Below are positions 3,001 through 26,185 of a DNA stretch of 28,132 bases, piece after piece. Source of the stretch: Elusimicrobiota bacterium (GTDB taxonomy: Bacteria > Elusimicrobiota > Elusimicrobia > Elusimicrobiales > UBA9959); assembly GCA_027340875.1 (NCBI GenBank), contig DAIENX010000003.1, forward strand, positions 1 to 28,132, written 5' to 3'. Numbering within the stretch: the stretch's first letter is position 1; each line of letters begins with the position of its first letter. Below the pieces are notes generated by a model. That model ran no database searches, was not told the origin of the DNA, and saw nothing but the letters and a program-made list of their open reading frames with translations. A program made the position numbers and the translations under genes.

Positions 3001-6000
3001 CACGTCGGTCAGCGGCGTGGTGTTGTCGAAAGTGAAATAGTACGCGGCGCTGGCGTCGGCGTTCTGGTTGTTGTCTATCTGGACGTTCGTAGGCTTGGCC
3101 TGCCAGTTGCCGGCCTTGTCGTAGCCGCGCGCCCAGACGGAGATCTTCGAGTTGTTGACAGGGGAGAGGGCCGGCAGCGCTATGCTCCAGGCGCCGTTGG
3201 CGTACGAGGCGTCATGCCAGAGGTCGTACTTGGTGACCGGGCTGGTGTCCCAATCGCCTATCACGCCGCCATAGGTGCCCTTCCAGATCGCGTTGTAGGT
3301 GCCGCGGGCCTTCACCAGGACCTTGACCCCCACGATGACGCCGGTATCGGTGACGACGCCGTAGATATAGGGCGCGCTGTACTGGGCCGACAGGTTCACC
3401 GGGGAAGTGGCGAGGGCGACGGGGACCTCGTTGTCGAACTGCACGACGCGCCCCGCCTGGGCCGGGATATCCGCGCCGGCCGGCTGTCCGGAGGCGGGCC
3501 CGAACTCCTTGTTCAGCGCCAGGTCGTAGGCGTAGGTGACGAAGCGGTAGTCCTGCCGCTTGTTAGTAGCGATGGCCCCCTGCAGCGGCGCCGGCAGGTT
3601 ATAGGTCCACGCGACCGTGGCCTGGCCGATGCTGTACGGCGAGGTGTCCACATAGACCTCGGACCAGATAGGCTCGGGCTGGTCGAAGGCGCTGCCGCTC
3701 CACCAGTTGCCGCCCACCAGGCGGACCGCGATCTTGACGGTGTAGGTGCCCAGCGCGGCCTCGTACACCCTGGGGCCGTAGCGTTCGTCGGTGGCCTGGC
3801 CGGAGACTGACGGTATGGAGTTGACGAACTCCGCGGACGGAGAGAGCACCGTAGAGGTGGGCTTGTCCAGGTCGAACTTGGTGGTGACGGAGACCACGCC
3901 GGAATAGTTGCCGGCGTAGTCCTGCACGCGGGCCTCGTACTTGTACTTCTTGTCGCTGTTGAAGGCCAGCGCCGCGGAATTGAAGCTCCAGGAGGTCGGC
4001 ACCCCCTGCGCGGGCCGCCAGACCGGCGCGGAGCAGGGCGTGAAGGACGAGCCGTCGAAGCAGTTGACGTAGCTGCCGTCCGCCAGCACCTCGCTGACGG
4101 CCACGGCGGCGGTGCTGGGGCCGGTGAAGGCGGCCGTCTGGTTGTTAGTGCCGCCTCCGGTCACCGGCGTCGAGACCAGCACTCCGGAGTAGGTGACGCC
4201 GTCGGCCGGATAGGCGATGGACGCCAGCGGCCCCGTTATGTCGTAAGTGAAGGTGAAGGTCGAGTAGAGCGACGAATAATTGCCGGCGTAATCCAAGGCC
4301 CTCGCCACCACGGTATAGGCCGCGTCGTCCCGGAGCATCGCCGGCTGGACGGTGTAGTACCAGGAGGTCGGGCCCAGCGTGGCCGCCTGGCGCCAGACGT
4401 TGGGGTCGTTGGAGTTCGCTGTCCACGCCGAGCCGTCCCAGAAGCGCTCGGCGACGCCGCTGCCCGTGGAGATCTTGACCTCGGCCCTGTCGAAGCCGGC
4501 CACGGCCGCGTTCGCCGTGCCGCCTATGCCGGGCAGCGCGTTCACCGCTACGGCGGCCGGCGTGGTCACCAGCACGCCCGGAGGCGTGTCGTCTATGATG
4601 AAATAGCGGACGTTGACCCCGCGCGTCTGCGCGGTCTCCCAGTTGCCGGCGCCGGTGTGGTCGGCCAGGCGCGCGTCGTCCATGGCCTTGACCTCGGCCT
4701 TGTACTCGCCCTCGCCCATGTTCCAGTTCACGTCCGGCAGGTAGACCCAGTTCCAGATGGCGCCCGCCGGCGAAACTGAGACCGGCTGCCAGGCCGCCTC
4801 GGAGGAGATCGTGGTGACGAAGGAGGCGCCGTCCCAGTAATAGGTGACGGCCCCGAGCAGATAGGAGAGGCGTATGACGCCGGAGGCGACGCCGGCGTTA
4901 TCCGCGCTGTAGTAGCTGTCCTGCATCGTTCCGAACAGCCTGGTGCCGGTGCCGGACTTGCCGACGTTGCCGGACCTGTAGCGGCCGCTGACGCCGTTCA
5001 GGTCGTCGGCGGGCAGCGTGAAGACCGAGGAAGGCGGGGCCTTGTCCACGATAAGCACCGCGGAGGAGACCCCCACCCCCAGGACCTCCTGCACGTTGCC
5101 GCCCACGTCGGCCGCCTTGGCCAGGAAGAGATAGCGCATCGCCGGAGTGCCGGCGGGGGCGTCCGTGAACCTGTTGTCGAAGGAAGCCGGCGCGTAGGAC
5201 CAGCTGGTGGCATTGGCCGACAGATAGCCGCTGGTATTGGCCTTGAGGGCGATCCAGAACGGGTTGGCGCCGTTGTCGAAGAAACCGGAGCCGTCGAACC
5301 AGAGAGGCGGGCTGCCGAGCTGCCGCACCGCGACGTAGACGTCGGAATTCGCGAAATTGTCCACCGCGGTGCCGGCGAGTCCGGCCACCTGGCGCATGCC
5401 GTTGACGGCGTTGGTGGAAGGCACCGCCAGGTAGGCCGTAGGGGAGGCTATGTCTATCGTGAACTGCGCCGCGGCGGCCGCGCCGGAGTTGCCCGCCTTG
5501 TCCGCGGCCGTCAGCTCCACTACGTAGGTCTGGTCCGGCTCAAAGACCTGGTGCGTGGTGAAATAATCGGTGGTATAGTTCAGCGTGCCGGTCTTCAGCA
5601 CGTCGTTCCAGCTCAGCACCGCCGGCAGGTCGGTATACTGGCCGGCCAAGGCGGTGAACGTGGAAGCCTGCCAGTTCCAGTATTCGGCGGCGGCCTGCCG
5701 CCTGACCCTGAAATAGCCCGAAACCACTGTACCCGGGGCGGTGTCGGAGACGGTACCGGACAGGGCCGCCAGGGAATGCAGATATATCTTGTCCGGCATC
5801 GTTATGGCGGCGGCGGGGTTGGAAGCGTCCAGGACGAACTCGCGGCCGGAGCCGGGCGTCTCCGGATAACCGTAGATCTCATGCGTTGCCTTGGAGACCG
5901 CGCGGTATTTCCGGTTGCCGTTCCACGTCGGCAGGGTTATGGTCCAGCCTGGCTTCGGGAAAGTGTTGACGCCGGCGTAGCCGGTGAACGCGGTGGTGGA

Positions 6001-9000
6001 TACCCAGGCCGAGCCGTTCCAGGCCAGATCGTCGTTGCCCTCGTTCTCCTTCAGGTCCGGCCCGTAATCCGTTATGCGCACCGCCACCGTAGTGGCGTAG
6101 ACCGCCGTACCGATTATGGGCGGGATATTGTCGGAACGGTAATGCGGGACCCCCGAAGGCGGCGTGGTTATGTCGGAGACCGGCGGCGGAGGATAGAGCC
6201 GGAACTGTATCAGCGGCGAGTCCGGCAGCGCCTGCGCCGGCTTGGCGACCGCGTTGGCGGCCTGGTCCACCGCCTTGGCGAAGATCTGGTACTGCACGCC
6301 GGCCAGCTCCGTGTACCAGGTAGGGGTGGAAGCTCCCGTGGCCTGCCAGGTGTTGCCGATTATAGTGGCGTCGTAGAACAGCTCCGTGGCGGAATCCCAG
6401 GCGCCGGTGGCGCGGTTCCAGTACTTGCCGGCGCAGACGCTGTCCACGCAGTAGTAGGACAGCCGCACCTTGTCCAGCGTGCCGGGCGCGAAATCGGAGG
6501 CGGAGCCCGTTATGACGTTCAGTTCGGCGTGCACCCCGGCCCCGTGGGTGGGATAGGTGACGGTGGAAACCGGCGGCGTGAAGTCGGCCTTGATGTTGGT
6601 GGCCGTGGCGTAGACCAGCTGGTAGTTGCCGGCCTTGTCCACCGCCCAGGCGTTGATCTCGTAGGTCTCGCCGCTCTGCCAGGGGGCCGTGTTGAGTTGC
6701 CACCAGGTCGCGGCCGGACTGAGAACGCCGTAGGACTGCACGCTGTTCTCCAGGGCGGCGACCGCCCACGAGGAACCGGCGATGCTCCAGTACTTGCCGG
6801 CGTTCGGGCCGGTCAGCTGCTTGACGCGCACCCTCAGGTCGTTCACTATACCGTTGGGGCTGTCGTACGAGCCGCCATAGATCTTGCCGGTCTGGCTGAT
6901 GTAGCCGTTGTCGTACGGATAGAAGATGGCGGCCGTGGGACGCGTTATATCGTAAACGAACGAGGCCTTCACCCCGTAGCCTTCCTGGTTGGTGGCGGCG
7001 TCGTTGGCGCTGGTCTGCACGGTGAAGCGCCTGCCGTCGTTCCCGGCGTACATGGCGGGGTTTATGGCATGGTCCCAGCCAGTCCAGGGCGGATTGGCGC
7101 CCAGCGGCTGCGGCGTGAGGGCCCAGCCGTTGACGCCGTTCCAGTACCAGCCGTCGGAGTCTCTGGTGATGTAAAGCGAGATGTTCGAGACGCCGGAGGA
7201 GCCGGGATCGTAACTGGTGCCCAGGACCTGCGCCGCCTGATAGTTCAGATGGGAGCCGTCGGCCGGCACGGTCACGGTGGAGACGGGCGCCTGGTTGTCA
7301 TAGAGGAAGGTGGCCGTGGTGTAGATGGTGTCGTAGTTGCCGGCCACGTCCAGGCCGCGCGCCCGGATGCGGTACGTGGCGCCGCTGGTCCAGGTGGAGT
7401 TCTGGATATTGTAGGTCCACGAGGAAGAACTGGCGTACAGGACCTCCTGCAGAGGCAGCCAGGGCGCCGAGTTCTCGGACGCGCCGGTGGTCGACCAGGG
7501 CGGGTTCAGCGACGGGTCGTAATACTTGTTCAGCGAGGTCATGAACACCGTTATGCGCGTCTGCGCCACGGCGACGTTATCGCCGGTGGTACCGGCGATG
7601 TTGGGCAGAGAGTTGTAGCTCGGCAGCGACGGCAGCGTTATATAGCTGACCGGCTTCTCGTTGTCGTAAGTGATCACGCGTCCGGTGCCGGCCGGGATAT
7701 TGGCGGCGAGAGGCTGGCCGCCGCCGGGGCCGTACTCCGGGTTGAGCGCGAGGTCGTAGGCCCACGGCACCAGCCGGTACTGCAGGTTCTGGTTGGCCGG
7801 CGCCGCCAGGTAGGTGCGCAGCGCGGCGGGGAGGTTGTAGGTCCACGTTACGGTGCTCTTGCCGGTATCGTAGGCGGAGGTGTCCACCGCCGTCTCGAAC
7901 CAGACAGGGTCCGTGGCGTCGAAGAGGTTGTTGGCGCTCCACCAGTTGCCGCCGACCAGCTGCAGCGCCACTTTAACGGTATAGGTGCCCAGGTTGGCGC
8001 GATAGGTATCCGCCACGTCCGCGGCCTCGCCGCTTATCCGCGTGAAGCCGGTGGTATATCCGGTCAGCGGATAGGTTATAGTAGAGGTCGGGGACTTGAC
8101 GTCGAACTTGATCGTCGCGGCGGCCGGCACGGACTCGTTGCCTGCGTAGTCCACGGCCTTGGCCTCGAACTTGTACTGCCGGTTCCCGGAGAGGTCCAGG
8201 TTCGCGTTGTTATAGCTCCAGGAGGCGAGCCCGGCAGCCGGCTGCCAGGAGGGGCAGGCGCCGAAGGATACGCCGTTGAAACAGGTGGTGTTGCCGAGAT
8301 CGGTGATCTGCAGGTAGACGGCGTTCACCTTGGAATAAGGGTCCGTCTGGTCGTTCTGGTCGGAGGCGCCGGCCGCTGGCGTGGACAGCCTGATGCGCGA
8401 ATAGGCCTCCCCGTTCAGCGGGAAGGACAGGGAGACGTGCGGCGGCACCGAGTCGTAGGTGAAGACGTAGGTGGAGTAGAGAGTGGAATAATTGCCGGCG
8501 TAGTCCCTCGCGCGCGCGGAGGCCGTATAGGGGGTGTCGTCGGAGAGTATCGCGCCGGGCACGGTGTAATACCAGGAGGTCGGCCCCTGTTTGGTGGTCA
8601 ATATCCAGGTATCGGGAGAGGCGGACCAGGCGGAACCGCTCCAGTAGCGGGCGGCGGCGCCGACGCCGGTGGAAATGCGTATCTCCGTATACTGGTGCCC
8701 CGCCAGGTCCGCGTTGGCGGTGCCGTAGATGGTGAACGGGGCCTTCTGCGCCAGTACCGACGCCGACGGCGTGGTTATCAGCACGGACGGCGGCGTGGTG
8801 TCCAGCACCACCTCCACGTCGGCGCCGAAAGTACCGGAATTGGGCGGCACCGCGTCGTCTATGCCGCGCACCGCTATCATGTATTTCTCGTCCGAAACCT
8901 GGTTAACGGCAGGCAGCGTATAGACCCAGTTGCCGGAAATGAAGGCGCCGGGGGACACCTCGGAGGGCGTGGCGGACCACGTGCCTCCGGTCCAGTAATA

Positions 9001-11937
9001 GGTGGTATTCCCCTCCAGCCGGCCGATGCGCAGCCTTATGTTAGTGACGGCGCCCATCCCGGCCGGGGTGTCGGAGGCGTTACCGCTCAGGGTCCAGGCG
9101 CCGTTGGGGTTCACTTTCCCGTAGCCGCCGGTATCCTCGTAGCCCGTCAGCGCCACGACCGGCGGCTGGGCGTCCCAGACTATGGTGAAGGAGGAGACGC
9201 CGTCGGCATAGACCTGCTGGGTGTTGCCCGGGGTCAGCGAAGTATCTTTGGCCCGGCTCCAGACAATGTACCAATAGCCCTGGGTGAAAAAGCCCGGGGG
9301 AGGCATGTGCGAATGCGTCCAAGAGGAGACGGTGACGTTGGGCACGTGCACGGCGGCGGTGCCCCAGTAGATATCGTCGCCCTCCGGCCGCGTGGCGTCC
9401 CAGTTCCCGCTATCCCAGCGCCAGTAGCTCGGCAGGGGCTCTACGTCCTGGGCCGGCCTCTTGAGATGCAGCAGCACCTTGTCCAGTTTGCCGGCGGTGC
9501 CGCCGGGGCCGGCTATGTCCCAGGCGGTGCCGGAGACGGCGTCCAGCGAGGAACGCACCTGGCCGCTGACGGCGGGCACCGTGGAGTTCACGGCGATGAA
9601 GTTCTGCAGCACCGCCGTGGGAGAGGTCCTGTCCACGAGGAAATCCACCGCCGACCCGGTCTGCACGTTGGCCGCCCTGTCGGTGACCTTCGGCGTTATC
9701 CTGTAAGCGGCGCCGTCCGCCCACGCGGGCAGCCCGGTATTGACGGACCAGGCGCCGGCGTTGAAAGTGGTGGTGGCCCAGACCACTCCGTTCTGCCAGG
9801 CCGTAGTGACCGGGTTCCAGTAGGTGGTGGAATAGGACAGGTCCTGTATGGTTATCTCCGCCTTTTCCACCTGCCCCGGCGCCGTGTCGGAAGCGTTGCC
9901 GGAGAGCTGCGGGACGTTGCGGTAGATCGCGGGACCGGGAGAGGAGATAGAAGCGGCAGGCAGCGTGAGGTCGTACGTCACTATGTTGCCGTTGAGATCG
10001 ATGGCCTGCTCCTCGCCGGCCGGGCCCACGCCCTTGGAAAGGAAGTAATAAGAAGTATTGTCCGTCCACGCGGAGGTGGAGATGCTGTCGGTCCACTCCC
10101 AGTAAAGGCTGGAGTCCGGCAGGACGGTGATGTTGCTGACGTTGAAGTAGGCGCGGGGCGCGGCCGGCCCCGGCATCGCGCCGGGGGCCGAGAAGGAGCT
10201 CCCGTACCAGTAATAGCCGTCGCTCAGCCTCTCGACCGACACTTTCACTCCGGAGAGTATGGAGTAGGCGAACTTGGTCGCGCCGCCGGAAATGACCTGG
10301 GGCTTCGACTTGGTGAAGGTGTTGTTGGACGGCACGCTGATCCAGGTGTCCGGATACGGGGCGCTGTAGTAGAAGTTCTTCCGCCAGATCATGGTCTCGG
10401 TATTGGCGGCCTTGTCGCGGGCGTAGGCGCGGACCGAGTACCAGGCGTTGTTCCACTGCCAGATGATGTCCGGGATGGTGTAGGTCCAGTTCCCGGCGGC
10501 CAGCGTGACGGAGGAGACGGGGAGCCAGGTGGTCGCGTTGTTCTGCCAGTTCTGGCCGTCGAAGGTCCAGGCCACCGCGCCGCCCTGCCCGGAGGGCGTG
10601 TAGGCGAACTGCAGGAAGACGTTGTCCACTACGCCCGGCGCCACATCGGAGGCGGTGCCGGTCACCTGCGGCAGAGGCGACGAGCCGTAAGTGGCCCCCT
10701 CCGCCGGCAGCGTGATCGTGGACGTGGGAGCCGTGAAATCGGCCTTGATGCTGGTGGCGGTGGAGTAAACGAGCTCCGCGTTGCCGGCCTTGTCGACCGA
10801 GTAGGAGTTGAACTCGTAGGTCTCGCCGCTCTGCCAGGGGGTGGCGTTCAGCTGCCACCAGGTCGCGGCCGGGCTGAGCGTGCCGTAGGAAACGACGCTG
10901 TTCCAGACCTCCGGCGCGCTCTCCACCGTCCAGCTGGAGTCCAGCACCCGCCAGTAATGCCCCGCCTTGGGCCCGGTCAGCTGCTTTATCCGCACCTTCA
11001 CGTCGCCCACCATGCCGTAGGGCTTGTCGTAGGAGGAGCCGGCGGCCTTGCCGGTCTGGCTGATGTAGCCGTTGTCGTACGGGTAGGTGACGGCGTTGGT
11101 GGGGCGGCTGACGTCGTAGACGAAAGTGGACTTCACGGCGAGAGCCTCGGAGTTGGAGGCCGCGTCGTTGGCGTAGGCCTCTATGTTGTACCTCTCGCCG
11201 TCTATGTAAGCCGCGACCTGGCTGCCGATGTCCCTGCTCCAACCGGTATACGGCGGCACGGTAGGCAGCGATACCGCCGGCGAGGCCTGCCAGCCTACGC
11301 CGGTCCAGTAGTCGCCGTTGGACTTCCTCAGATAGAGCGTGACGTTATTGACCCCGGAGAAGCCGTCGAAGGCGGTGCCGGTTATCGTTATCGGATAGGC
11401 CGACAGCGGCAGGTGGGAACCGTTGGCCGGGTAGGTCACGCTGGAGACCGGGATCTCGGTGTCGAACTGGAACGCGCCGGTGGAATAGACGATATCCCAG
11501 TTGCCCGCGCCGTCCATGGAGCGGGCCCTGACCCGGTAATGGGCGCCGCTGGTCCAGGTGGAGTTCTGTACGCCGTACGTCCAGGTGGCCGAGGTGGTCC
11601 ACAGCGTCATCTGCGGGGAGATCCACGGCGCGTCGTTGTCGGTAAGGCAGCCGGCGGTCTTCCACGGCGGGTCGAGCGACGGGTCATAGCACTTGTTCTG
11701 GTCGTAGTTGAAGATGCTGAACGCTACCGCGCCTACGGCGGTGTTGTCCACGGCGTCGCCTTTCAACAGCGTCAGGGTATTATAGGCCGTCTTATACGGC
11801 TCCTGCACGGTGGTGACGGGGCGCTGGTTCAGGTAGTCGCGCGTGGAATAAATGACGGAGTAGTTGCCGGCGTAGTCCAGCGCACGCGCCGACACGGTGT
11901 AGGTGGTCTTGGCCACCAGCATGGAAGCCGGCACCGT
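1..11937 (-). CDS. In-frame continuation of the giant Ig-repeat protein (~3,979 codons, ~31 more Ig-like domains), 3'-truncated by the window edge
   Basis: Manual translation after the TAA continues TVPASMLVAKTTYTVSARALDYAGNYS.... The same frame yields Ig-repeat motifs down to base 1 (...STITWSYPPATYDPPTISTNNHVYTIYV). The ORF track lists no minus-strand ORF ending in this frame below 11938, consistent with no further stop; the continuation is presumably unlisted because it has no stop inside the window. Confidence 0.9.
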
Positions 11938-14150
11938 TTAATACCAGGACGTGGGGCCCATCCGGATGGAATCGTTCCAGGTCTCCGGGGCCGCCACCCA
12001 GGACGACGCCAGGCCGTCCCAGTATTTTATCGCCGCGCCGGTCCCGGTGGAGATGCGCACCTGCGCCTTGTTGAAGCCGGCAAGGTTCCCGTTGGCCGTG
12101 CCGTAGATGTTGGTATCGGAGGTCAGCGAGAGCTCGGTCGGGGTGGTTATGGCCACGTCCGGAGGGGTGTCGCAGATCACGAACTTCATCAGGTTCTGGC
12201 CCTGGGAGAGAACTGTCTCCCAGTTGCCCTGGCCGATACCGTCCCACGGGCGCGTGGCGTCCATCGATCTGGCTTCCAGGGCGTATTCCCTGTCCCCGGC
12301 CGGCCAGGTTATATCGTTGGGATAGATCCAGCTGCCGACGCCGGAGGCGTTGACCCAGGAGGCGGACAGCGCCGCGGTGCCGGAGCTGAAAGAGGTGCCG
12401 ATCCAGTACCAGGTGTCCCCGGAGAGCAGGTAGGACAGGCGTATCAGCGTCTTCTCCACCCCGGCGTTGTTGGCGGCATAGAAGCTGTCCGACGCCGAGC
12501 CGTAGAAACGCGAGGACGTGGCCGTCTTGCCGATATTCGCCGACTTGTAGCGGCCGCTCAAGCCGTTGGAGTCGTCAGCCGGGAGCGTGACGGAGGTCGC
12601 CGGCGGCGCCTTGTCCACGAAGACCACGCGCGAGGACACGTCCACGACGAACTGGTCCTGCAGGTTGCCGGCCACGTCGGTGGAGCGGGTCAGCAGCAGG
12701 TACTTGAGGCCGCCGGGAGAGGCGGAGTCCAGGCCGGCCGGGGCGTAGGCCCAGCTGGTGGCGTTCGGCGAGAGGAAGCCGTTCGCGCCGCCTACGTACA
12801 GCCAGTAGGGGTTGGACTGCAGCGCGTTGAAGCCCGTGCCGTCGTACCAGAGCTGCGGGCTGCCCCACTGCTGTATGGCCACCTGCACGCTCTCGTTCCG
12901 GCCGTTGTCCGCCGCGGTGCCGGAAAGTTCCGCGATGATATTGACCCCTTGCAGGCCGTCCGGCAGGAGTATCCGGGCCGTAGGCGAGGCGGTGTCTATG
13001 GTGAACTGCTGGTAGGGCGTGGGGAAATATTTCTGCCGGCCGGCCTTGTCGGTGATCCTGACCTGGACCTCGTAGGTCTTGCTGTTCTCGAAGGCCGGCA
13101 GGCCGGTGTTCAGGTGCCAGCCCTCGGAATTGGAGTCGAAGAACCCGTCGTCCGGCACGGCCGGCAGCCAGACCGCTCCCGAAGCGGTCCAACTGGAGCC
13201 CGTCCAGTAATAGGTGCCCGACATCGTGGAGATATCCACCTCCACGTTCACCACCTTGCCGACGCCTACGTCCGACGCCAGGCCGTAGATCGAAGGGACG
13301 CTGCGCTCGTACTGCGCGTTCGGTTCCGCGAGGGTGGTGGCCGGGTCGTCGCCGTCTATATAGAAATATCTTTCCGGCAGCGGCGTCAGCTCCGGTATGC
13401 CGTCGATGTCGGAAGCGGCCCTGGACTTCACGCTGAAATACGCGGTGCCGGCTGGCCAGATGCCTGCGGTGGCCCTGCTCCAGTTCGGCGCCGCTATGCT
13501 GTCCACGCCGAAGTAGCCGCAGGTGGACTTCCCGATCACATAGGTGGAGTCGGTACAGCCGGCCAGATAGGTGACCGTGGAGATCCAGCCGCCCGGGGTC
13601 CAGACCTGGTTGGGGGTGACGCTGAGATCGGTTATCATCACCTGCACGGTGTCCGCGGCCTGCAGCGTGCCGCTGATGACGGCCAGGTCCGTAGGCCGGT
13701 AGTACGGCACGCCGCTGGGCGGCACGGAGATGGTGGAGTCCGGCAGCGGCGTCACCTTGTTGATCTTGATGAGGGAGGACTGCGCGGGCGGCGTGGTGAA
13801 GCCGGCGTAGCCGGGCCAGGCGGTCTTGTTGTCCACCAGGTCCGTGGCCCTGGCGAAGACCAGGTAGCTCTGGCCGTTGACCAGCGCCGGCACGCTGGAG
13901 CCGGTCACGGTCCACGGCACGGGCGTGGCGGTGGAAGTGGAGGCCTCCACGTAAGCCAACTCGGGCGGCGGGTTGATGCCGTCGCCCAGGCTGAAAGTGC
14001 CCACGGTGGCCGGGTTCCACCATTTCTGCGCCGTAAGGCTGTAATAAGCCACCTGCACCCGCTTGACACCGGTGTAGGTATCTGCGGCGGTGCCGGAAAG
14101 GGAGCTGAACACGTACACGTCGGCCGTTGCCGGCGACTGTATGAGGGTGG
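1..14150 (-). repeat. 11-domain Ig super-repeat (~4.15-4.3 kb period), about 3.5 units visible
   Basis: Approximate unit starts at 14150, 10725, 6570 and 2255. Recurrent landmarks: VSS..V.D..PP (12620, 9190, 5065, 765) and GPTSWY(Y)TV (11945, 8570, 4360). An identical 36-nt stretch occurs at 6883-6918 and 11047-11082, and a 29-nt stretch at 6658-6686 and 10813-10841. Confidence 0.8.
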
Positions 14151-17100
14151 TGGGCGGGGTGCGGTCCGGACGGAAGGTGTTCTGGTTGCGCCCCTGGGAG
14201 AACACTGATTCCACGTTGGACTTGAGGATGTTGTCCTTGTCCAGCGCGCTGTCCGCCGCGCGCACCCTGACGCGGTAAGGCCTGCCGTCCACGGCGGCCG
14301 CAAAGAGGGTGGAGGTGTTATAAGTATAGGTACTGTCCGCCACCAGGGCCATGTCCTTCCAGGTGGCAGCGCCGCCGCAGGCGCCGCTGAAATCGGTGCC
14401 GTTCCAGCAGGTGAGCGTGACCTCGTCGCGCACCTCGGCCTGCATGCCGCTCACCAGGCCGCCGGAGGCGAGTCCCGTGAGCGGCAGGTCCACGGCCGAG
14501 CCGACTATCGCCGAGAGCTGGTAGCCGGCGTTATTGCTGTACCAGGAGTTGTCAGAAGGCGACAGAATGGTGGAGGTGGGCGGCTGCACCTCGTACTTGA
14601 AGGTCTTCTTGAGCGTGGTCGAGGACTCGACGTTCCGGAAAGTGCCGTCGGGCAGGTCCACGTTGTCCTTCGACCAGGCGTAGACCTTGAACTCGTCCGC
14701 GGTAGGAACGCCCGTCCAGAAGCCGCCCATGCTCTGGTGGTTCCAGGAAGCGGCCGGCGACTGGCAGGAGTCGTTGCGGCTGGCCTGCCAGCCGTTGACC
14801 GTGCCGTTCCACCACAGGCCGTCGGACTGGCGCTGCACGCCTATGCAGGTCATGTTGAGGCCGGACTGGCGGGTGGTGTCCGGCATGTCGTTGGCCGTGC
14901 CGGAGATGTTGGTGAGGGCGGTGTCGGAATAGGTGGCGCCGGTCAGCGGGTTCAGCACCGCGGTAGCCGGGGGTGTGGCGTCGTACCTGAACACCACCGT
15001 GGAATATACGGTGGAGTAGTTGCCGGCCTTGTCCAGCGCGCGGCCCACGTAGGTATACTGCTCTCCGGAGAGCCACGCTATATTGGAGGACTGCCACACA
15101 TCGTAGGGGACCGTGGTGGTGGTCCCGCCCACGTTCCAGATGTCGTTCGTCTGGTCCAGCCACAGGGAGGAGGCCTTATCCCACTTCGCCAGCGGCGGGT
15201 GGCTCAGCGTGTACTCGGTCTTCGACACCTTGGAGAAGCCGTCGTTGGCGGTGCCGAGCAGCCGGACAAGGGAGTTCAGTCCGTAATTACCGCCGGAGAC
15301 CGGGAAGGTTATCCCGAGGGTGGGGATCTCGCTGTCGTAGAGGAAGTAGCCGCTGGTGGCCGGGGAAAGGGCCGTGCCGGTGGAGTTATTGGCGGCGTCC
15401 GCGGCGTATACCGCCACGTCGTACCAGAAGCCGTTCTTCCAGTCGGTGGAGACGCCGATGCTGAACGGGTAGGGGTCAGAGGCCGGTGCGTACTGCGCGT
15501 ACTGATAGATGGGGCTTGGCGAAGCGCAGCCGCTGCCCCACTTGTCCGCGCCGCCCTGCTCGTAGACGCAGTAGTAGACCCGGCGGGTGCCGATGACGTT
15601 GTCCACCACGTTGTCCAGCAGGCTGCCCTGCAGGAAGTCGAAGGAGTTGCGCCAGACGTTGGCCGGGTCGCCCTGGGAGACCGGCGCGTTGGGCATCAGC
15701 GCCTCCGGCACCGTGACGGTTATCGTCGGCGCGGTGACGTCGTAGTAGAAATCGCGGCTCAGGCCCACGGTCTGGGGATTGAACTTGTCGGAGGCTCTGG
15801 CCTGGATGCGGTACTTCCTGCCGTCTATCCAGGCCGGCAGCTTGGAGTGCGCTACGTTGTCCGGGACGGCCTTGACTATGAAGTTCAGCGACTTGTTGAG
15901 ACATTCGTCGCCGCAGGAGTAATTGGTCAGCGTGCCCGGCGGAGAAGGCAGCTGGACCACGTAGTACCAGGTGGCGGGGACCTGAAATCCCGTGGCGTCA
16001 AAGCCGGTCCAGTAGGTATCGTCGTTGCCAACCGCCTCGCCTATCGTGCCGTTGGGACCGGAGTTTATCAGCTGCATCTGCACGCTCTGGAGGCCCACCC
16101 CCGCGTCGGCGGCCGTACCCTGTATGCTGAGCAGGGAACTGTTGCTGGAGTTGGGGACCGGCATAGTGAAGTTGACGCCGGGAGGCGACTTGTCTATCTT
16201 GAACGTCACCGCGCTGGAGGGGTTCCCGAAGCCCCTGTCGCTGGTCTTGCCGCGGCTCTCCAGCGTGTAGGTGGCCCCGTCGGCCTGCGCGGCGGCGTCG
16301 TTGGGCCAGCCGCCGTTGGACCAGGTGGTGATGCCGCTGGTGACCTGCAGCCACTGCTGGCCGGAAATGGCGGGGTCCACGTAGTTCACGGAGTTCCACT
16401 GGTAGCCGTCGGAGCGGGTTATCCTCATTTCGGGGGCGATGTTGCTCTGGCCCGCCGCCGGCGACAGGCCGGAGACGCCGGTGATCTGCGCTATGCCGCT
16501 GGAATAAAGTATGGGCTCCACCGGGTAGGTGAGGTCGGAGGAAGGCACGGTCACGGTGGCCACTCCGGCCTTGAAGCCGTCGCGGCCGTCCCAGTTCGAG
16601 ATGAAGGCGTCCATGGGCCCTCCGGCGACGGACTGGTCCACGGTGAAATGCGCCTGGATCTGCGTGGCGCTGTTGTAGGTCACGCTGGTGATGGCCACGC
16701 CGGCCACCGCCGAACCGTTGCGGGAGAACATGACGCCCGGGGCAGGATTGTTCAGGAAGCCTGTGCCGGTGAAGGTGATGTCGTAGGTGGGGTCCGTGGC
16801 GTAGTCCACCAGACCGGCGCCTATGCCCACGGTGGCCGGGGAAGCGGAGGTCACGCCGGGCGGGGCATTGTTCGACGTGGGCAGCCTGTCGAATTCCACG
16901 ACTCCGCCCGCGGTCCAGGCCACGGGCACGGGATAGGGCAGCTGTATGTAGGAAGGCGCCTGCGGGGAAGTGGCGCCGCCGGCGCTTTGCTGCCAGTCGC
17001 GCGTTATCGAGAATTCGCCGGCGGCGGTGGCCGTGGCCGGTCCTACGGCGTAATTGACCGAGCCGTACGTGGAGAGATAGATGATGTAAACCTTATTATA

Positions 17101-18243
17101 GGAGGCGGCGTCGGCGGCGTCCTTGGCGGCGTATACTACCGAGGGCTGGCCGTAAGGGGTGGCGAAGGCGGCGCCGAGATTGTCTATGGCGAGGGGCCCG
17201 ACGCCCCACGTGCCGGCCGCCGTGCGCCGCATGTAGACCAGCGAGCCGGTGTTATCGATAAAGGCCAGATGCACTACCGAGGCATTGGGCTCTGACGCCA
17301 TGGACGGGGCATAATACGGGTCGTTGCCGCCGGTGCCGGGGGCAGTGCTCCATTCGCGGGCCTCGTAGGTGGTCCCGTTATACCGGTGTATCCTCAGCGA
17401 GCCGGGGCGGTCGCTCCGGTCCACCTGCGCCTCTATCACTTTCCAGGTGCCGCCGTCGTTCACCGGCACTATGGTGCCGAACTGCTTGTAGGGGCCGGCG
17501 CCCTCGCTGGTGCGGTCGTTCTGGTCCACCGATATCACCGTTCCGCCCACGAGGTTGAGCCCCACGTCCGGCTGGCCCAGCACGGAGGTCTGGGTACCGC
17601 CGCGGCGCTTGGCGTCGCAGACCCAGGCCACCGCGCCGGTGGTCATGTTGCCTATCAGCGCTATGCTCACGTTGCCGCCGGCGTAGCAGTCCGAAGGCGT
17701 CCTGCCGTCCACGTTGCCGGTTATCGGCCGGGTCTGCAGGCCGCCCCAGGTGATGCTGCCGTCCGCATTGAGCGTGCCCTTCTTCAGGAAAATGTTATTG
17801 GCTGGGGGAGGATTAGTGGGATCGGTATCCGCGGACGGGTCGTTGGCCACCGCGTAGACCACGCTGTCGGTGGCCACGTAGTAGACGCTGCCGTACATCA
17901 GGTTCACGCTGCCGCCGGCCTCGATGGTGGAGATGGCCACCTCTTCCGCCGACCAGGTGGCGCCGTTGAAAGAGCGGCTGGCGAAGCCTTTGGCGTTCTC
18001 GTAGAACACCCAGGTACGCTTGTAGCCTTCGCTGTAGAAGACCTTCCTGGAGGCGGGCCAGTCCGTGCTGTCGGCGCCGCTTATGGGCTGCGGAGCGGCG
18101 TAGCCCGGCAGGCGGAACGCCGCAAGGGCGGGGAGGAGCAGGAGCAGGGCGGCGGCGGCGCGGCCCTTGAAGCGGGCGGCAAGGACGGAGGCGAGGCCTT
18201 TAAGGCCCGCCGAGTTCCTCCGTTCTCCCGCTATAGCCGGCAT
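11938..18243 (-). CDS. Giant exported Ig-like repeat protein (putative adhesin/surface protein), N-terminal 2101 aa up to an internal TAA
   Basis: ORF track 2101 aa. Basic N-region plus hydrophobic stretch (RFKGRAAAALLLLLPALAAFRLPGYAAP) resembles a Sec signal. ~16880-18090 is a beta-rich, propeller-like region. ~16560-16870 is IPT/TIG-like (PPGVTSASP..YDITFTGTGF..VTYNSATQI). Then ~12 repeats of 115-150 aa with pattern D.T.P...I..P / GTA.D / YW.G..W / Y...RA.D.AGN, typical of bacterial Ig-like domains. Domain family names are by eye, not HMM. Confidence 0.88.
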   Translation of the reverse strand: MPAIAGERRNSAGLKGLASVLAARFKGRAAAALLLLLPALAAFRLPGYAAPQPISGADSTDWPASRKVFYSEGYKRTWVFYENAKGFASRSFNGATWSAEEVAISTIEAGGSVNLMYGSVYYVATDSVVYAVANDPSADTDPTNPPPANNIFLKKGTLNADGSITWGGLQTRPITGNVDGRTPSDCYAGGNVSIALIGNMTTGAVAWVCDAKRRGGTQTSVLGQPDVGLNLVGGTVISVDQNDRTSEGAGPYKQFGTIVPVNDGGTWKVIEAQVDRSDRPGSLRIHRYNGTTYEAREWSTAPGTGGNDPYYAPSMASEPNASVVHLAFIDNTGSLVYMRRTAAGTWGVGPLAIDNLGAAFATPYGQPSVVYAAKDAADAASYNKVYIIYLSTYGSVNYAVGPATATAAGEFSITRDWQQSAGGATSPQAPSYIQLPYPVPVAWTAGGVVEFDRLPTSNNAPPGVTSASPATVGIGAGLVDYATDPTYDITFTGTGFLNNPAPGVMFSRNGSAVAGVAITSVTYNSATQIQAHFTVDQSVAGGPMDAFISNWDGRDGFKAGVATVTVPSSDLTYPVEPILYSSGIAQITGVSGLSPAAGQSNIAPEMRITRSDGYQWNSVNYVDPAISGQQWLQVTSGITTWSNGGWPNDAAAQADGATYTLESRGKTSDRGFGNPSSAVTFKIDKSPPGVNFTMPVPNSSNSSLLSIQGTAADAGVGLQSVQMQLINSGPNGTIGEAVGNDDTYWTGFDATGFQVPATWYYVVQLPSPPGTLTNYSCGDECLNKSLNFIVKAVPDNVAHSKLPAWIDGRKYRIQARASDKFNPQTVGLSRDFYYDVTAPTITVTVPEALMPNAPVSQGDPANVWRNSFDFLQGSLLDNVVDNVIGTRRVYYCVYEQGGADKWGSGCASPSPIYQYAQYAPASDPYPFSIGVSTDWKNGFWYDVAVYAADAANNSTGTALSPATSGYFLYDSEIPTLGITFPVSGGNYGLNSLVRLLGTANDGFSKVSKTEYTLSHPPLAKWDKASSLWLDQTNDIWNVGGTTTTVPYDVWQSSNIAWLSGEQYTYVGRALDKAGNYSTVYSTVVFRYDATPPATAVLNPLTGATYSDTALTNISGTANDMPDTTRQSGLNMTCIGVQRQSDGLWWNGTVNGWQASRNDSCQSPAASWNHQSMGGFWTGVPTADEFKVYAWSKDNVDLPDGTFRNVESSTTLKKTFKYEVQPPTSTILSPSDNSWYSNNAGYQLSAIVGSAVDLPLTGLASGGLVSGMQAEVRDEVTLTCWNGTDFSGACGGAATWKDMALVADSTYTYNTSTLFAAAVDGRPYRVRVRAADSALDKDNILKSNVESVFSQGRNQNTFRPDRTPPTTLIQSPATADVYVFSSLSGTAADTYTGVKRVQVAYYSLTAQKWWNPATVGTFSLGDGINPPPELAYVEASTSTATPVPWTVTGSSVPALVNGQSYLVFARATDLVDNKTAWPGYAGFTTPPAQSSLIKINKVTPLPDSTISVPPSGVPYYRPTDLAVISGTLQAADTVQVMITDLSVTPNQVWTPGGWISTVTYLAGCTDSTYVIGKSTCGYFGVDSIAAPNWSRATAGIWPAGTAYFSVKSRAASDIDGIPELTPLPERYFYIDGDDPATTLAEPNAQYERSVPSIYGLASDVGVGKVVNVEVDISTMSGTYYWTGSSWTASGAVWLPAVPDDGFFDSNSEGWHLNTGLPAFENSKTYEVQVRITDKAGRQKYFPTPYQQFTIDTASPTARILLPDGLQGVNIIAELSGTAADNGRNESVQVAIQQWGSPQLWYDGTGFNALQSNPYWLYVGGANGFLSPNATSWAYAPAGLDSASPGGLKYLLLTRSTDVAGNLQDQFVVDVSSRVVFVDKAPPATSVTLPADDSNGLSGRYKSANIGKTATSSRFYGSASDSFYAANNAGVEKTLIRLSYLLSGDTWYWIGTSFSSGTAALSASWVNASGVGSWIYPNDITWPAGDREYALEARSMDATRPWDGIGQGNWETVLSQGQNLMKFVICDTPPDVAITTPTELSLTSDTNIYGTANGNLAGFNKAQVRISTGTGAAIKYWDGLASSWVAAPETWNDSIRMGPTSWY

Positions 18244-18258
18244 ATCGTTCCACGGGCC

Positions 18259-18900
18259 TCAGCGGCCTTTCGGGACCTCCATGGACCTGAGCACGTTGGA
18301 GACCCAGCCCGCCAGCTTAGGGTCCGGCCCGGCCTTGAGGGCGTTCAGGGCCGACCGCGCCGCGGGGGTGCCTATCTTGCCCAGGCTCTCCACGGCGGCT
18401 ATCCTGACCAGCTCGTCCTCGTCGCCGACGGCCGCCTTGCGCAGCGCGGGTACGCCGTTGTCGGAGCCGAGCGAGCCCAGCACCTCCGCCGCCTTCCAGC
18501 GGGTGTTCCTGTCCTTGTCGCTCATCAGCGCGGCCGCCGGAGCGGCGGCGCGCCTGTCGCCCAGATCGCGCAGCCCTTCCAGCGCGCCGAGGCGCGTAAC
18601 GGTGTCCGTGGACTTGAGCGAATCGGACAGCACCAGGTAGGCGGCCTTGTCCTTGGAGCGGCCTATAAGGCGGGCGGCGCGCTCCCTGATGGCCGGATCT
18701 TCGTCGGAAAGGGACTTCTTCAGCAGGTCCATCTTCCAGGGCTGCTTCGAACCCCCGACATCTTCCAGCGCCTTGCGGCGGTTATGGAAGTCCTTGTCGG
18801 CCAGCCGGCTTTCGTCGGCGGCGCGGTCGGGCGCAGGCACGTCGGCGGCCTTGGCGGCGCCGACTGCGATCATTAATATCGTTATAATAGTCTTTAGCAT
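18259..18900 (-). CDS. Secreted HEAT/PBS-lyase-like repeat protein (~213 aa)
   Basis: Repeats L.D.D..IRERAARLIG, LMSDKDRNTRWKAAEVLG and DEDELVRIAAVESLG. Signal peptide MLKTIITILMIAVGAAKA. Start moved from the track's 19116 to the ATG at 18900. Stop lies 15 nt before the giant gene start, so the two are probably co-transcribed. Confidence 0.85.
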   Translation of the reverse strand: MLKTIITILMIAVGAAKAADVPAPDRAADESRLADKDFHNRRKALEDVGGSKQPWKMDLLKKSLSDEDPAIRERAARLIGRSKDKAAYLVLSDSLKSTDTVTRLGALEGLRDLGDRRAAAPAAALMSDKDRNTRWKAAEVLGSLGSDNGVPALRKAAVGDEDELVRIAAVESLGKIGTPAARSALNALKAGPDPKLAGWVSNVLRSMEVPKGR

Positions 18901-18987
18901 CGGTAAACGCAAAACGACCAAGCCGCTCTGCGCTACTTTCCGGCCAGTGGCCGTACGGGGGCGCGGGGCGGACACGGTAATTAAATC

Positions 18988-19015
18988 ATTATAATATAAA
19001 ATCGTTGTTTCGCAA
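18988..19015 (-). promoter_or_regulatory. Possible sigma70-type promoter upstream of the HEAT/giant gene pair
   Basis: TTGCGA (19015-19010), 16-nt spacer, TATAAT (18993-18988), within an AT-rich patch. Confidence 0.45.
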
Positions 19016-19136
19016 ACGTTAAAAAGCCGTGACATGGGCCGCGCGCCCGGGCGCGCGGGAAGAGGACGGCCCTGGGCCGCCATTATAATCCTGCCTGGCA
19101 TTCCGGCGTGGGACATCCTTGCCTCCGGCGGGGCCC

Positions 19137-19210
19137 AAAAAAGGGCCGTTTCCGCTCTCTTCGCCTCAACCCGGTTCTGGGCTGATACCCCGAAGACAGC
19201 GGAAACGGCC
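19137..19210 (-). terminator. Long intrinsic terminator hairpin (riboswitch expression platform)
   Basis: Arms 19191-19210 and 19144-19163 pair at 19/20 positions, with an inner stem UCAGCCC/GGGUUGA. The hairpin is followed on the minus strand by CUUUUUU (A-run 19137-19142). Confidence 0.8.
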
Positions 19211-19254
19211 TGAATCCGTTCCGCAACGCCGGCATAAAGCCGTACGGTCCCTGG

Positions 19255-19338
19255 TCTTCGGCAGCCTGACCCCCGTTCACGTAACGGGTCTTAGCTTTGC
19301 GCCGCCGGCTTTGGCCGGCTTTGCTATTATCGGTACGC
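19255..19338 (-). ncRNA. GEMM-I (c-di-GMP-I family) riboswitch aptamer, A20 variant (candidate 3',3'-cGAMP sensor)
   Basis: The minus strand reads CCGAUAAUAGCAAA-GCCGGC-CAAA-GCCGGC-GGCGCAAAGC-UAAGACCCGUUACGUGAACGGGGGUCAG-GCUGCCGAAG. This matches the family skeleton G.....RGCAAA-stem-loop-GRCGCAAAGC-P3-GCCGAA in order and spacing. Confidence 0.82.
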
Positions 19339-19373
19339 TTCTAAAACTACTGCCCCGGCTTCCTACTGAAACA

Positions 19374-19481
19374 CCCCGCCCTTTTGGGACACACACCGCG
19401 CTACCGTCACACCGCGTCTGTCTGCGACCGCAACTGCACCACCGCACCGCTGCCGCACTGCACCAAGCCAAAAGGGCGGGG
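19374..19481 (-). repeat. Perfect 14-bp inverted repeat enclosing an 80-nt loop of GCRGU-like repeats
   Basis: ccccgcccttttgg (19374-19387) pairs with ccaaaagggcgggg (19468-19481). Plus-strand ACCGC occurs at 19395, 19411, 19427, 19441 and 19446, with single-mismatch variants at 19403, 19433, 19452 and 19457. Confidence 0.85.
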
Positions 19482-19556
19482 CACGTCACTGAAGGTGCCG
19501 TATCAGGGGCTATGCCCATCGGACGGCCACCGCGAACCACGCCTCTCCGCGGTTAT

Positions 19557-19584
19557 ATTATAGCAGACGGATACGGTTTGTCAA
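19557..19584 (-). promoter_or_regulatory. Consensus sigma70 promoter with extended -10 driving the riboswitch leader
   Basis: TTGACA (19584-19579), 16-nt spacer ending in TGC, TATAAT (19562-19557). Predicted transcription start is about 19550. Confidence 0.85.
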
Positions 19585-19602
19585 GAGGCATCCGTTGACG
19601 CG

Positions 19603-20724
19603 TCAAGGGGCCCTCGAACCGCCGCGCAACGACTCCAGCGCGGCCGAATACGCCTTATCGGAGAGAAGGGAAGCCGCGCCCCAGGCGGGCGTGCCGCCGC
19701 CCGCCGGCACGTCGGGCTGCACCCCCCGGCCCTCCAGGTCCGCGCCGGACGCCGTGACCAGCCTGGCCACGGTAAGGCGCAAACCCCGGCCCTCGCCCAG
19801 AGGAAAGGTCTTCTGAACGGATACCCTGCCGGCGGTGCGCGAGCCCACCAGAGCGGCCCCCGCCAGCTCCTTAAGAGAGGCGGCGAAGACCTCGCCCGTC
19901 ATGGAGGTACCGCCGTCCACCAGTACCGCCACGCGAAAACCGGAGAAAGGGCCGGCCTTCCTGGCCAGATAATCCCTGGAATACAGCTCATGCCTGGAAG
20001 CCAGCCTGAGCACCGGACCCGGCTTCCGGGCGAAAAGGGTCAGCAGGTCGGCCGCCTCGGCCGGCGATCCGCCCCTGTTGCCGCGCAGGTCCAGAACCAC
20101 GTTCCTGGCCCCCTGCTTTACCAGGCCGGCCAGTCCGGAGGCGGCTATAGCGGCTGAATCGCCGTAAAAAAGCCCCAGCCGCACGAAAGCCGTGCGGGTA
20201 CCGGGCTCATAGAAGCCGAATATCTCCGGCGCGGAGAACGGCTCCGCCTTGACGGCGGCGTCGAATTCGGACACCCCCCCGCTGCCGCGGCGGGCCGCCC
20301 TTATGGCCAACTGGCCGCCGCCCGCCAGCGCCTTCAGGAAGCCTTCCGAACCCGGCGGTTGCGAGTTAACGGAGAGCAGCTTGTCCCTGTCCCTGAGGCC
20401 GGCCTTCTCGGCCGGAGAGCCCTTGAACACCCTGAACAGGCAGTAGCCGCCGTCCTTTATCCCCGTCAGCATGCCGAAGGACGGGGCTGGCGCGGCGGAG
20501 GAAAGCTTCAAGGCGCGCCTGCGCTCCACTATCTCGGAGTAAGGGTCCGCCTCCTTCAATCCGGCCGCCCCTTTCTCCCTCAGCAGCATTCTCAGCCTGC
20601 CGGGGTCCTGTTCGGAAAAGCCCTGCTCCCGGAATATCTCCAGCGTCCGCTCCTCGGGCGGCTTGTACGCGCAGGCGGACAGCGACAGCAGCAGCAGGGT
20701 GGTCAATATATCGTTCTTGGTCAT
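19603..20724 (-). CDS. Lipoprotein, PDZ + S41 (CtpA/Prc-like) peptidase family; catalytic residues appear degenerate
   Basis: Lipobox LLLLSLSAC; PDZ motif VFKGSPAEKAGLR.RDKLLSVN; S41 motifs VVLDLRGNRGG, AVLVDGGTSMTGEVFAASL, LVGSRTAGRVSVQ and GRGVQPDV. Confidence 0.88.
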   Translation of the reverse strand: MTKNDILTTLLLLSLSACAYKPPEERTLEIFREQGFSEQDPGRLRMLLREKGAAGLKEADPYSEIVERRRALKLSSAAPAPSFGMLTGIKDGGYCLFRVFKGSPAEKAGLRDRDKLLSVNSQPPGSEGFLKALAGGGQLAIRAARRGSGGVSEFDAAVKAEPFSAPEIFGFYEPGTRTAFVRLGLFYGDSAAIAASGLAGLVKQGARNVVLDLRGNRGGSPAEAADLLTLFARKPGPVLRLASRHELYSRDYLARKAGPFSGFRVAVLVDGGTSMTGEVFAASLKELAGAALVGSRTAGRVSVQKTFPLGEGRGLRLTVARLVTASGADLEGRGVQPDVPAGGGTPAWGAASLLSDKAYSAALESLRGGSRAP

Positions 20725-22061: not shown

Positions 22062-22137
22062 ATCTCCTCCGGCGGCAAACAAAAGATAAAGGTCTGGGGA
22101 CTGGCTTCCGCCATCTCCTGGGCCTTTCGTTCACAAT

Positions 22138-25780: not shown

Positions 25781-25806
25781 ATGCCAGTCAGTTACAGGCC
25801 GCCGCC

Positions 25807-26064
25807 TTATTTCGGCTGGCCGGCGCCTATGATAAGCCCCACTATCGTGAATATCCCTCCGAGTATGCGCCGGTGGAACAGTATGGCCATCATCGCGGCC
25901 ACGCCGGCCACTATCGCGAGCAGCAGCAGGTACTCTATGGTGGTCTGGCCGGACCTGCGCGCCAGCACGGCCGGCGTCACCGGCGGAATGCCGTAGAACG
26001 CCAGCTCCGCGCGGCGCATGACGCGCCGCGACAGCCCCAGCAGGTCCGCCGCGATGATATTCAT
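25807..26064 (-). CDS. Flp/Fap-type (type IVc/Tad) prepilin
   Basis: RRSG|QTTIEYLLLLAIVAG fits the Flp motif G|xxxxEY followed by a hydrophobic helix; short mature protein. Confidence 0.85.
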   Translation of the reverse strand: MNIIAADLLGLSRRVMRRAELAFYGIPPVTPAVLARRSGQTTIEYLLLLAIVAGVAAMMAILFHRRILGGIFTIVGLIIGAGQPK

Positions 26065-26098
26065 CCTTCACTACCAGCCTTTCCGCCGGCCCGTTTAT

Positions 26099-26127: not shown

Positions 26128-26185
26128 GTGCTTAAACAGTATACAATCGCAATGTTTCTATATTATTAACAGGCCGCGGAGACGC

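Follow-up and report, generated by a model that had tools for sequence, protein, structure and literature searches.

A GEMM-I riboswitch with adenine at its ligand-specificity position precedes a putative giant surface-protein operon in Elusimicrobiota and probably responds to c-di-GMP

The stretch of DNA analyzed here (the window, 28,132 nucleotides, or nt, in full) comes from an Elusimicrobiota metagenome-assembled genome (MAG; 112 contigs totaling 2.81 Mb; completeness 92.45%, contamination 5.49%), in which it is contig C109 (genome G000). On its reverse strand, where all of the window features described below lie, it carries a riboswitch aptamer of the GEMM-I (cyclic di-GMP-I, or c-di-GMP-I) family, followed by an intrinsic terminator, a gene for a secreted HEAT-repeat protein, and a giant gene for a secreted protein with immunoglobulin (Ig)-like repeats. 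At the position equivalent to G20 of the Vibrio cholerae aptamer Vc2, the aptamer has an adenine rather than a guanine (hereafter, A20 and G20 for the two variants), from which a first-pass annotation of this DNA, made from its letters, had proposed that the operon answers to 3',3'-cGAMP (cyclic GMP-AMP; cGAMP hereafter) or to c-di-GMP. We consider herein which ligand the element is likely to sense, in which direction it would switch, and how far it would control the genes behind it.

When the whole window was scanned with cmscan against Rfam 15, RF01051 (c-di-GMP-I) was the sole family above its gathering score (55.0 bits, against a gathering score of 35 bits; E value 2.2e-08), with the match running over 19335..19257 and spanning model positions 1-87 of 87. 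In a search of a 771-nt stretch (18850-19620), the E value was 6.2e-10, and RF01051 was the best family of clan CL00126. The first-pass annotation had placed a GEMM-I aptamer at 19255-19338, coordinates that enclose the match, and had suggested a covariance-model search with RF01051 as a check; that search upheld the aptamer, with a score above gathering, and the cmscan alignment gave the same letters at the three ligand-contacting positions (A at 19325, A at 19298, and C at 19261) and the same 5' segment, CGAUAAUA. Specifically, the A at 19325 falls on model column 11, the ligand-specificity position, where the consensus is G and which stands immediately 5' of the opening G-C pair of the first hairpin; the A at 19298, which is the first to follow CGC, falls on model column 38 and is the equivalent of A47; and the C at 19261, with which the 3' CCGAA begins, is the equivalent of C92, which pairs with the G of the ligand. 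Equating these positions with G20, A47, and C92 assumes the Vc2 numbering. The roles of G20 and C92, as described in PMC6140456, agree with this mapping.

Among 64 aligned aptamers from related genomes, the A47 and C92 equivalents were invariant (64/64; A38 and C75 of the first sequence), and 12 of the 17 pairs predicted by RNAalifold kept pairing despite changes on both sides. Because the aptamer covaries in these pairs and recurs in 55 of 101 related genomes (the source genome and 100 relatives), the match is more than a chance one; by score, covariation, and pocket letters, 19335..19257 is a genuine member of GEMM-I. Compared with Vc2 and the RF01051 model, the fold given by the covariance model, the two covarying hairpins (P2 and P3), the invariant A47 and C92 equivalents, and the placement in a 5' leader before surface or envelope genes are the same, whereas A20 in place of G20, a P2 loop of CAAA in place of the consensus GAAA (GAAA, UAAA, CAAA, UUAA, or GCAA among relatives), the Elusimicrobiota host, and a structured, G/U-rich leader of 215 nt set the element apart. 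In the family, a GNRA tetraloop of P2 docks into a P3 receptor.

Downstream of the aptamer lies the intrinsic terminator (19137..19210), which consists of a 5' arm, T (19210..19190), a 3' arm, H (19163..19144), and a run of six U (19142..19137); its hairpin has a predicted energy of about -53 kcal/mol and is followed by UUUUUU. Orthologous leaders keep the terminator, with a tract of U5-U8 and with compensatory changes, and a simple terminator scanner missed it in the window because of its long loop. Sub-threshold Rfam matches on this hairpin, seen at E values up to 1 in 18850-19620 (VA RNA, 28.5 bits against 62; mir-2331), were taken as chance. About 11 nt past the U tract, a GGAGG Shine-Dalgarno sequence with an ATG (19114..19126; ATG at 19116) opens a frame that enters the HEAT gene. 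A GGAGG- or GGGAGG-type site with an ATG follows the terminator in 10 of 12 terminator-type orthologous loci, the frame from that ATG is unbroken into the HEAT open reading frame (ORF) in 9 of the 12 (266-299 residues), and every indel in that frame, 60 to 105 nt long, has a length divisible by three. The gene itself (18259..18900) encodes a secreted HEAT-repeat protein of 213 residues from the ATG at 18900, or 285 from that at 19116, with matches to HEAT_2 (E value 1e-31), HEAT_PBS, and HEAT, and with a hydrophobic N terminus. A HEAT gene is also found 3' of an A20 aptamer in the loci of 16 relatives, with the order of aptamer, terminator, and HEAT gene kept.

Starting 15 nt past the HEAT gene, the giant gene (1..18243) runs off the window edge and encodes a secreted Ig-like-repeat protein of >6,080 residues, with a signal peptide and matches to Big_13 (E value 1.3e-11), Big_3_2, and Big_7. 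As assembled, it is split by an in-frame TAA (11940..11938) into 2,101 and 3,978 residues, in the middle of a repeat domain. The contigs of all four public DNA runs that cover this stretch (4/4) have G, not T, at 11938, which gives TAC (Tyr) in place of TAA, and in three of the four relatives checked a single ORF of >6,260 residues stands directly after the HEAT gene; thus, the TAA is an assembly or minor-variant artifact, and the gene is no pseudogene. The contigs of the public DNA runs break at about 19007-19333, probably since the aptamer is multi-copy, and nothing was concluded from these breaks. From its size, signal peptide, and Ig-like domains, we infer an adhesin role for the giant protein. 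The first-pass annotation had placed the riboswitch upstream of a >18-kb surface-protein gene, which proved right, with a small HEAT-repeat gene in front of it. Its further statement that this gene lies next to Tad pilins went unconfirmed: a Pfam search of 11 large ORFs matched no pilin family, and a scan of six frames of the window for Flp/Tad pilin motifs, a crude test, found nothing.

Upstream of the aptamer, a strong promoter (P1, 19584..19557; TTGACA, 16 nt, TATAAT, with a TG before the -10 box) matches the consensus at 12 of 12 positions. The surrounding 2.5-kb region has 4 promoter-like sites, against 0.2 expected in shuffles, and each of the 12 orthologous loci compared has, 106-247 nt 5' of the aptamer, a TTGACA promoter with a TCTGCTATAAT-, TATACT-, or TACAAT-type -10 box. 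The 215-nt leader (19336-19550) has 6 GCGGT, against 0.7 in shuffles (maximum 4), and holds a hairpin (19374..19481) with a 14-bp stem (CCCCGCCCUUUUGG / CCAAAAGGGCGGGG) and a G/U-rich loop of about 80 nt with GCGGU repeats. This hairpin is conserved in orthologs, where it is longer and a U-rich run follows the stem; in the search of 18850-19620, no Rfam family matched it. The hairpin might serve as a platform for protein binding or as a first checkpoint.

The A20 aptamer is spread widely among relatives of the source genome. When named genomes were scanned for exact matches to the A20 signature, at least 122 stretches had it, and among the 80 matches listed, 41 were from Elusimicrobia, Elusimicrobiota, Elusimicrobiales, or Elusimicrobiaceae. 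The Elusimicrobia-type loci L182, L149, L139, L141, L160, L192, and L132 match 357-500 nt of the window's 650-nt leader at 70-81% identity, and L159, which is of the same type, matches 198 nt of it at 87%. As Elusimicrobiaceae belong to the phylum Elusimicrobiota, the host is outside the deltaproteobacterial lineages, the circumstance under which the first-pass annotation had expected cGAMP surface signaling to extend to another group. A literature search found nothing on GEMM-I in Elusimicrobia, judging by titles and abstract starts. By family, GEMM-I was present in 52 of 60 genomes in f1, 0 of 38 in f2, and 2 of 2 in f3. Across the 119 GEMM-I aptamers of the 55 genomes that have it (one duplicate removed; one A copy truncated), position 20 is A in 107 and G in 12, and in the window's genus it is A in 81 of 83. 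A search of the source genome for other A20 aptamers, which the first-pass annotation had also suggested, brought its GEMM-I elements to three (on C99, C109, and C81), all of which read CGAUAAUA directly followed by GC.

When the leaders were grouped by which gene lies in the 1.2-1.5 kb retrieved 3' of each aptamer, position 20 was A in all 19 HEAT-repeat leaders (19 A, 0 G; tblastn), in 12 of the Kelch-repeat leaders (5 G), in 46 of the FadL/TPR-like outer-membrane-protein leaders (1 G), and in 30 of those with another or unknown gene (6 G). Three more HEAT-type leaders found with Pfam (L012, L032, and L039), from other genera and one other family, are likewise A20. L122 and L123, Kelch-type aptamers from the same genus, are identical except at position 20, at position 1, and in the length of a P2 insert, and A20 and G20 aptamers coexist in seven genomes (G044, G047, G051, G045, G064, G016, and G018). 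Position 20 is thus interchangeable in this lineage, with A/G flips among orthologous riboswitches. Further, the A20/GAYAAUA signature stood in Rfam-confirmed GEMM-I aptamers at 10 of 20 tested named loci from outside Elusimicrobia, including those of the cultured Bacillota Ammoniphilus resinae, Halalkalibacter alkaliphilus, and Paenibacillus agricola; the remaining 10 loci matched the pattern by chance. The CGAUAAUA context is, hence, not Geobacter-specific. The first-pass annotation had quoted CGACAAUA as the supposedly similar Geobacter segment.

In the measurements given in PMC6140456, Vc2 G20A has a dissociation constant of 53 nM for c-di-GMP versus 120 nM for cGAMP, and the natural A20 aptamer Cbe 1-2 has 30 nM versus 463 nM; the same text reports that an A20 pocket takes c-di-GMP by means of an adenine that is protonated and that the stability of the P1 helix contributes to the selectivity of the Geobacter aptamer Gs1761. 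As both Vc2 G20A and Cbe 1-2 are bispecific there, A20 is not sufficient for cGAMP selectivity. Like the element in the window, these two RNAs combine the GEMM-I fold with A20, and the host of Cbe 1-2, Clostridium beijerinckii, is without a reported Hypr cyclase; the element in the window differs in phylum and genes, and the measured constants are those of the Cbe 1-2 and Vc2 G20A RNAs. By analogy, c-di-GMP binding like theirs is expected of the A20 pocket here, which probably also admits 3',3'-cGAMP in vitro. A20 may, in addition, set a higher c-di-GMP threshold than G20 does.

The cyclases of the genome bear on the same question. Hypr GGDEF enzymes have Ser348 in place of the canonical Asp, and GacA with the change S348D acts purely as a diguanylate cyclase (PMC6456294). 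The source genome has six GGDEF domains, three of which are full-length GGDEI/GGEEF cyclases, and all six keep Asn and Asp at both base-reading positions. Together with 29 domains from five relatives (90-100% complete, two of them carrying both A20 and G20 aptamers), Asp occupies the specificity site in 35 of the 35 GGDEF domains read, and no Hypr Ser/Thr was found at that site in these domains of the six genomes. The first-pass annotation had asked for searches of the genome for a Hypr-type GGDEF or for cGAS/DncV-like nucleotidyltransferases (CD-NTases), and had named the lack of a cGAMP synthase, together with strict c-di-GMP selectivity, among the outcomes that would refute its proposal; the first search gave only Asp, and the second found no SMODS CD-NTase domain in the genome (92% complete), with the control matched in 3 genomes. 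With its signature present in other phyla, no known synthase found, and A/G flips, the step from A20 and CGAUAAUA to 3',3'-cGAMP was not supported, and membership in the cGAMP-selective GEMM-Ib group is not established: the adenine is there, and the expected synthase was not found. The genome also encodes two PilZ, five HD-GYP-type (HD_5), and two DAC domains; a c-di-GMP network is present. On these lines of evidence, we regard c-di-GMP, supplied by the canonical diguanylate cyclases, as quite likely to be the physiological signal; cGAMP appears unlikely in that role, and a ligand other than these two appears less likely still.

Several observations pull away from c-di-GMP. The MAG is incomplete and partly contaminated, so a synthase could be missing from it; the specificity-residue reading covered 29 of the 32 GGDEF matches in the relatives; and a DncV-like Pfam model was without a match in the genome, with its control silent too, which makes that result uninformative. 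No EAL domain was found in the genome, only HD-GYP-type ones, from which cyclic-dinucleotide breakdown appears to rest on HD-GYP enzymes alone, and some members of the HD-GYP family are cGAMP phosphodiesterases (abstract of bioRxiv 10.1101/600031). Further, three proteins that join a response-regulator (REC) domain to a divergent GGDEF-like domain with a GGDDF motif (C70:638-2467, C64:4808-5791, and C101:34483-35550 of G000) are conserved in 5/5 relatives checked; they keep the Asn and Asp base contacts, and Pfam covers only the first two thirds of their GGDEF-like domain. Finally, A20 is invariant in the HEAT-type leaders (19/19, and the three further ones from other genera and another family). 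Such strict conservation indicates that A20 is under selection in the HEAT-type riboswitch, which would fit a distinct ligand too, although we consider it more likely that what is selected is a weaker affinity for c-di-GMP, and with it a higher switching threshold, rather than a different ligand.

These points are also the basis of an alternative in which the element is a true GEMM-Ib riboswitch, with A20 selecting 3',3'-cGAMP made by an enzyme that is neither Hypr nor CD-NTase, such as a REC-GGDDF protein, and switching the surface operon on. Besides the retention of A20 in HEAT-type leaders of several genera and two families, the seven genomes with both A20 and G20 aptamers recall the two signals of Geobacter, the targets are surface proteins, as in Geobacter, the three family-conserved REC-GGDDF proteins are candidate synthases, and Geobacter A20 aptamers reach up to about 1,200-1,600-fold selectivity for cGAMP (PMC6456294 and PMC8835794). 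We nevertheless regard this alternative as improbable. No known cGAMP synthase was found, given that Asp is universal in the domains read, including the GGDDF proteins, which also keep Asn, and that no SMODS domain was found; strict selectivity would leave all riboswitches without a synthase and, with A20 in 81 of 83 aptamers of the genus, would leave three canonical cyclases almost without a riboswitch; orthologous leaders flip between A and G; and in the cases measured in PMC6140456, A20 alone makes an aptamer bispecific or c-di-GMP-preferring. The Geobacter GEMM-Ib elements (Gs1761 before pgcA, Gm0970, and pilM) do share with the one described here A20, a transcriptional platform with an intrinsic terminator, and several copies per genome before surface-protein genes. 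In contrast to them, neither a Hypr GGDEF nor a CD-NTase was found in the source genome or the five relatives, and orthologs flip between A20 and G20.

A broader version is that a family-wide A20 regulon of Elusimicrobiales, of giant Ig-like, Kelch-repeat, and outer-membrane proteins, reads 3',3'-cGAMP or a mixed purine dinucleotide made by an unrecognized class of cyclases, for which the conserved response-regulator-GGDDF proteins would be the obvious candidates, while the few G20 copies read c-di-GMP. We give this only a slim chance; if true, it would mean a second, independent origin of cGAMP surface signaling, without Hypr GGDEF or CD-NTase.

How a ligand could act on the terminator is suggested by predicted pairings among the aptamer, the terminator, and the sequence between them. 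A spacer, S (19242..19223), is nearly the reverse complement of the 5' half of the aptamer; 20 pairs between them are predicted in the minimum free energy (MFE) fold of the window, and at least 16 in 7 of 11 full-length MFE folds of orthologous leaders. The segment that follows, X (19224..19214; GCGGAACGGAU), is predicted to be able to pair with the 5' arm of the terminator, T: the X-T hairpin (GGAACGG/CCGUUUCC) is part of the predicted fold of 11/11 orthologous leaders when they are cut off after T, with a duplex energy of -10 to -13.7 kcal/mol, and in 9 of 11 full-length MFE folds X pairs, instead, with the 5' flank of the aptamer. Our overall reading, to which we give slightly better than even odds of being right as a whole, is that of an A20 GEMM-I riboswitch with c-di-GMP as its ligand, which acts as a transcriptional ON switch by gating the terminator ahead of the surface-protein operon. 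Specifically, P1 would transcribe the G/U-rich leader, the aptamer, and the terminator. Without ligand, S would lie on the 5' half of the aptamer and X on its 5' flank, which would leave T free for H, so that the terminator closes and transcription stops. With ligand, the aptamer would be locked and X would be free as T emerges; the X-T hairpin would then delay closure of the terminator, and RNA polymerase would read through. As four mutually exclusive elements (the aptamer, S and X on the aptamer, X-T, and T-H) give an ON switch by parity, the modeled direction is probably ON, as it is for the Geobacter GEMM-Ib elements.

Several features speak against this direction. At -3.7 to -6.9 kcal/mol, the duplex that X forms with the 5' flank is weak compared with X-T; X-T forms anyway in the MFE of truncated, ligand-free transcripts, which makes the difference between the two states rest on a kinetic argument; and of the 5 pairs that orthologs have here, the 5' flank (UACCG) makes only 3 with CGGAU in the window. 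The helix of X with the 5' flank, which RNAalifold proposed, had been considered as the whole switch and was dropped, given this energy and the two pairs lost in the window. An OFF switch with the same aptamer and ligand, in which aptamer and terminator can coexist, a strand of the unfolded GC-rich aptamer (GCCGGCC) or X holds T without ligand, and the ligand frees T for termination, draws on the same X-T hairpin, present in the ligand-free truncated MFE of 11/11 leaders, and on the sequence of T itself, whose GGCCG can, as read, also pair with CGGCC of the aptamer. The complementarity of S to the aptamer 5' half, at about 20 pairs, is far better than that of T, and the chain of four elements yields ON by parity. 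Further, c-di-GMP usually induces, rather than represses, adhesins. We therefore consider an OFF switch to be a doubtful alternative.

Known riboswitches of this family argue in both directions. In Cd1 of Clostridioides difficile, as in the window, a separate terminator lies downstream of the aptamer with an intermediate alternative helix between them, a layout without overlap that belongs to an OFF switch, while in the ON switch pilM the terminator overlaps the aptamer, sequesters the C92-equivalent base, and is mutually exclusive with it (these layouts as given in PMC9262584). In the window, the terminator starts only about 47 nt past the aptamer, with no overlap between the two, which favors the OFF alternative. 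Cd1, which has G20, is OFF, and stands before flagellar genes, differs in that the element here has one more alternative element, from which parity predicts ON.

The genes may also have another promoter. An AT-rich, promoter-like block (18988..19015; TTGCGA, 16 nt, TATAAT) lies 3' of the terminator, before the HEAT gene, fits a sigma-70 promoter at 10 of 12 positions, and is nearly invariant across the genus. In loci of other genera (L014, L032, and L106), TATTATAAT likewise stands past the terminator and before the HEAT gene, as does TACTATAAT in L039. That the block is purely coding (a motif FNVCET..LYYN) was considered and dropped, given that TATTATAAT stands in other frames and proteins in distant genera; its presence before their HEAT genes in other protein contexts suggests a DNA or RNA element, for example, a second promoter. 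This counts against the switch model set out above, as the operon may not depend on read-through; should the block work as a promoter, only some of the transcription of the operon would be gated by the riboswitch. At the extreme, the riboswitch and terminator would be largely uncoupled from the HEAT and giant genes, which would be expressed from the block at 19015..18988, while the P1 RNA of about 410 nt would be mainly a stand-alone transcript, for which the resemblance of the GCGGU repeats of the leader to a protein-binding platform might speak, or would add a ligand-dependent extra to a basal level. Conversely, the GGAGG-ATG after the terminator is conserved, its frame runs through the block into the HEAT ORF in 9/12 loci with indels in multiples of three, which suggests that read-through transcripts are made and translated, and the order of aptamer, terminator, and HEAT gene is kept in the 16 relatives. 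On balance, we find uncoupling unlikely and retain the gated terminator as our preferred reading.

Taken as natural data, these results indicate that the shortcut from A20 to cGAMP is unsafe: here is a family with A20 in about 90% of its GEMM-I aptamers (107/119), with cyclases that, in the six genomes read, all look guanine-specific, and with A/G swaps before the same gene. The cGAMP reading is unsupported by context, given this prevalence, Asp in 35/35, a search that found no SMODS domain, the flips before Kelch genes, and an affinity of an A20 aptamer for c-di-GMP of about 30 nM (PMC6140456). If binding of c-di-GMP is confirmed, A20 would be better read as tuning the threshold or breadth of the sensor; if selectivity for cGAMP is shown, an unknown cGAMP synthase must exist in Elusimicrobiota. 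Our analysis contributes a family-wide count at position 20, reads the residue that sets cyclase specificity in six genomes, documents A/G flips among orthologs, and corrects a false stop codon. The locus would tie second-messenger control to a surface protein of >6,000 residues in a phylum with almost no experimental genetics.

The other two riboswitch copies of the genome stand before different genes. The A20 aptamer at C81:30681-30771 precedes a gene for a 791-residue secreted Kelch-repeat protein and has its own terminator, and that at C99:152-230 is followed at once by the ORF of a 498-residue FadL/TPR-like outer-membrane protein. With the HEAT and giant genes, all three riboswitches thus address envelope proteins. 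Farther upstream in the window, four sizeable ORFs (20787-22082, 23923-24507, 24512-26071, and 26132-26677) are without a Pfam family at an E value of 0.001 and lie upstream of S41 peptidase and FtsH genes. A 12-bp palindrome, TTGACGCGTCAA (19595..19606), stands just upstream of the -35 box of P1 and is a possible operator. TTGACnnGTCAA stands at the matching place in orthologous leaders and upstream of the C99 copy (near 305-316), so that in two of the genome's three riboswitch copies the palindrome precedes the -35 box by about 10 nt; a transcription factor likely acts at this site, and both protein and RNA may, accordingly, control the operons. The C99 copy also has, just upstream of its promoter, a direct tandem repeat of about 46 nt in two copies (G000, C99, about 395-490).

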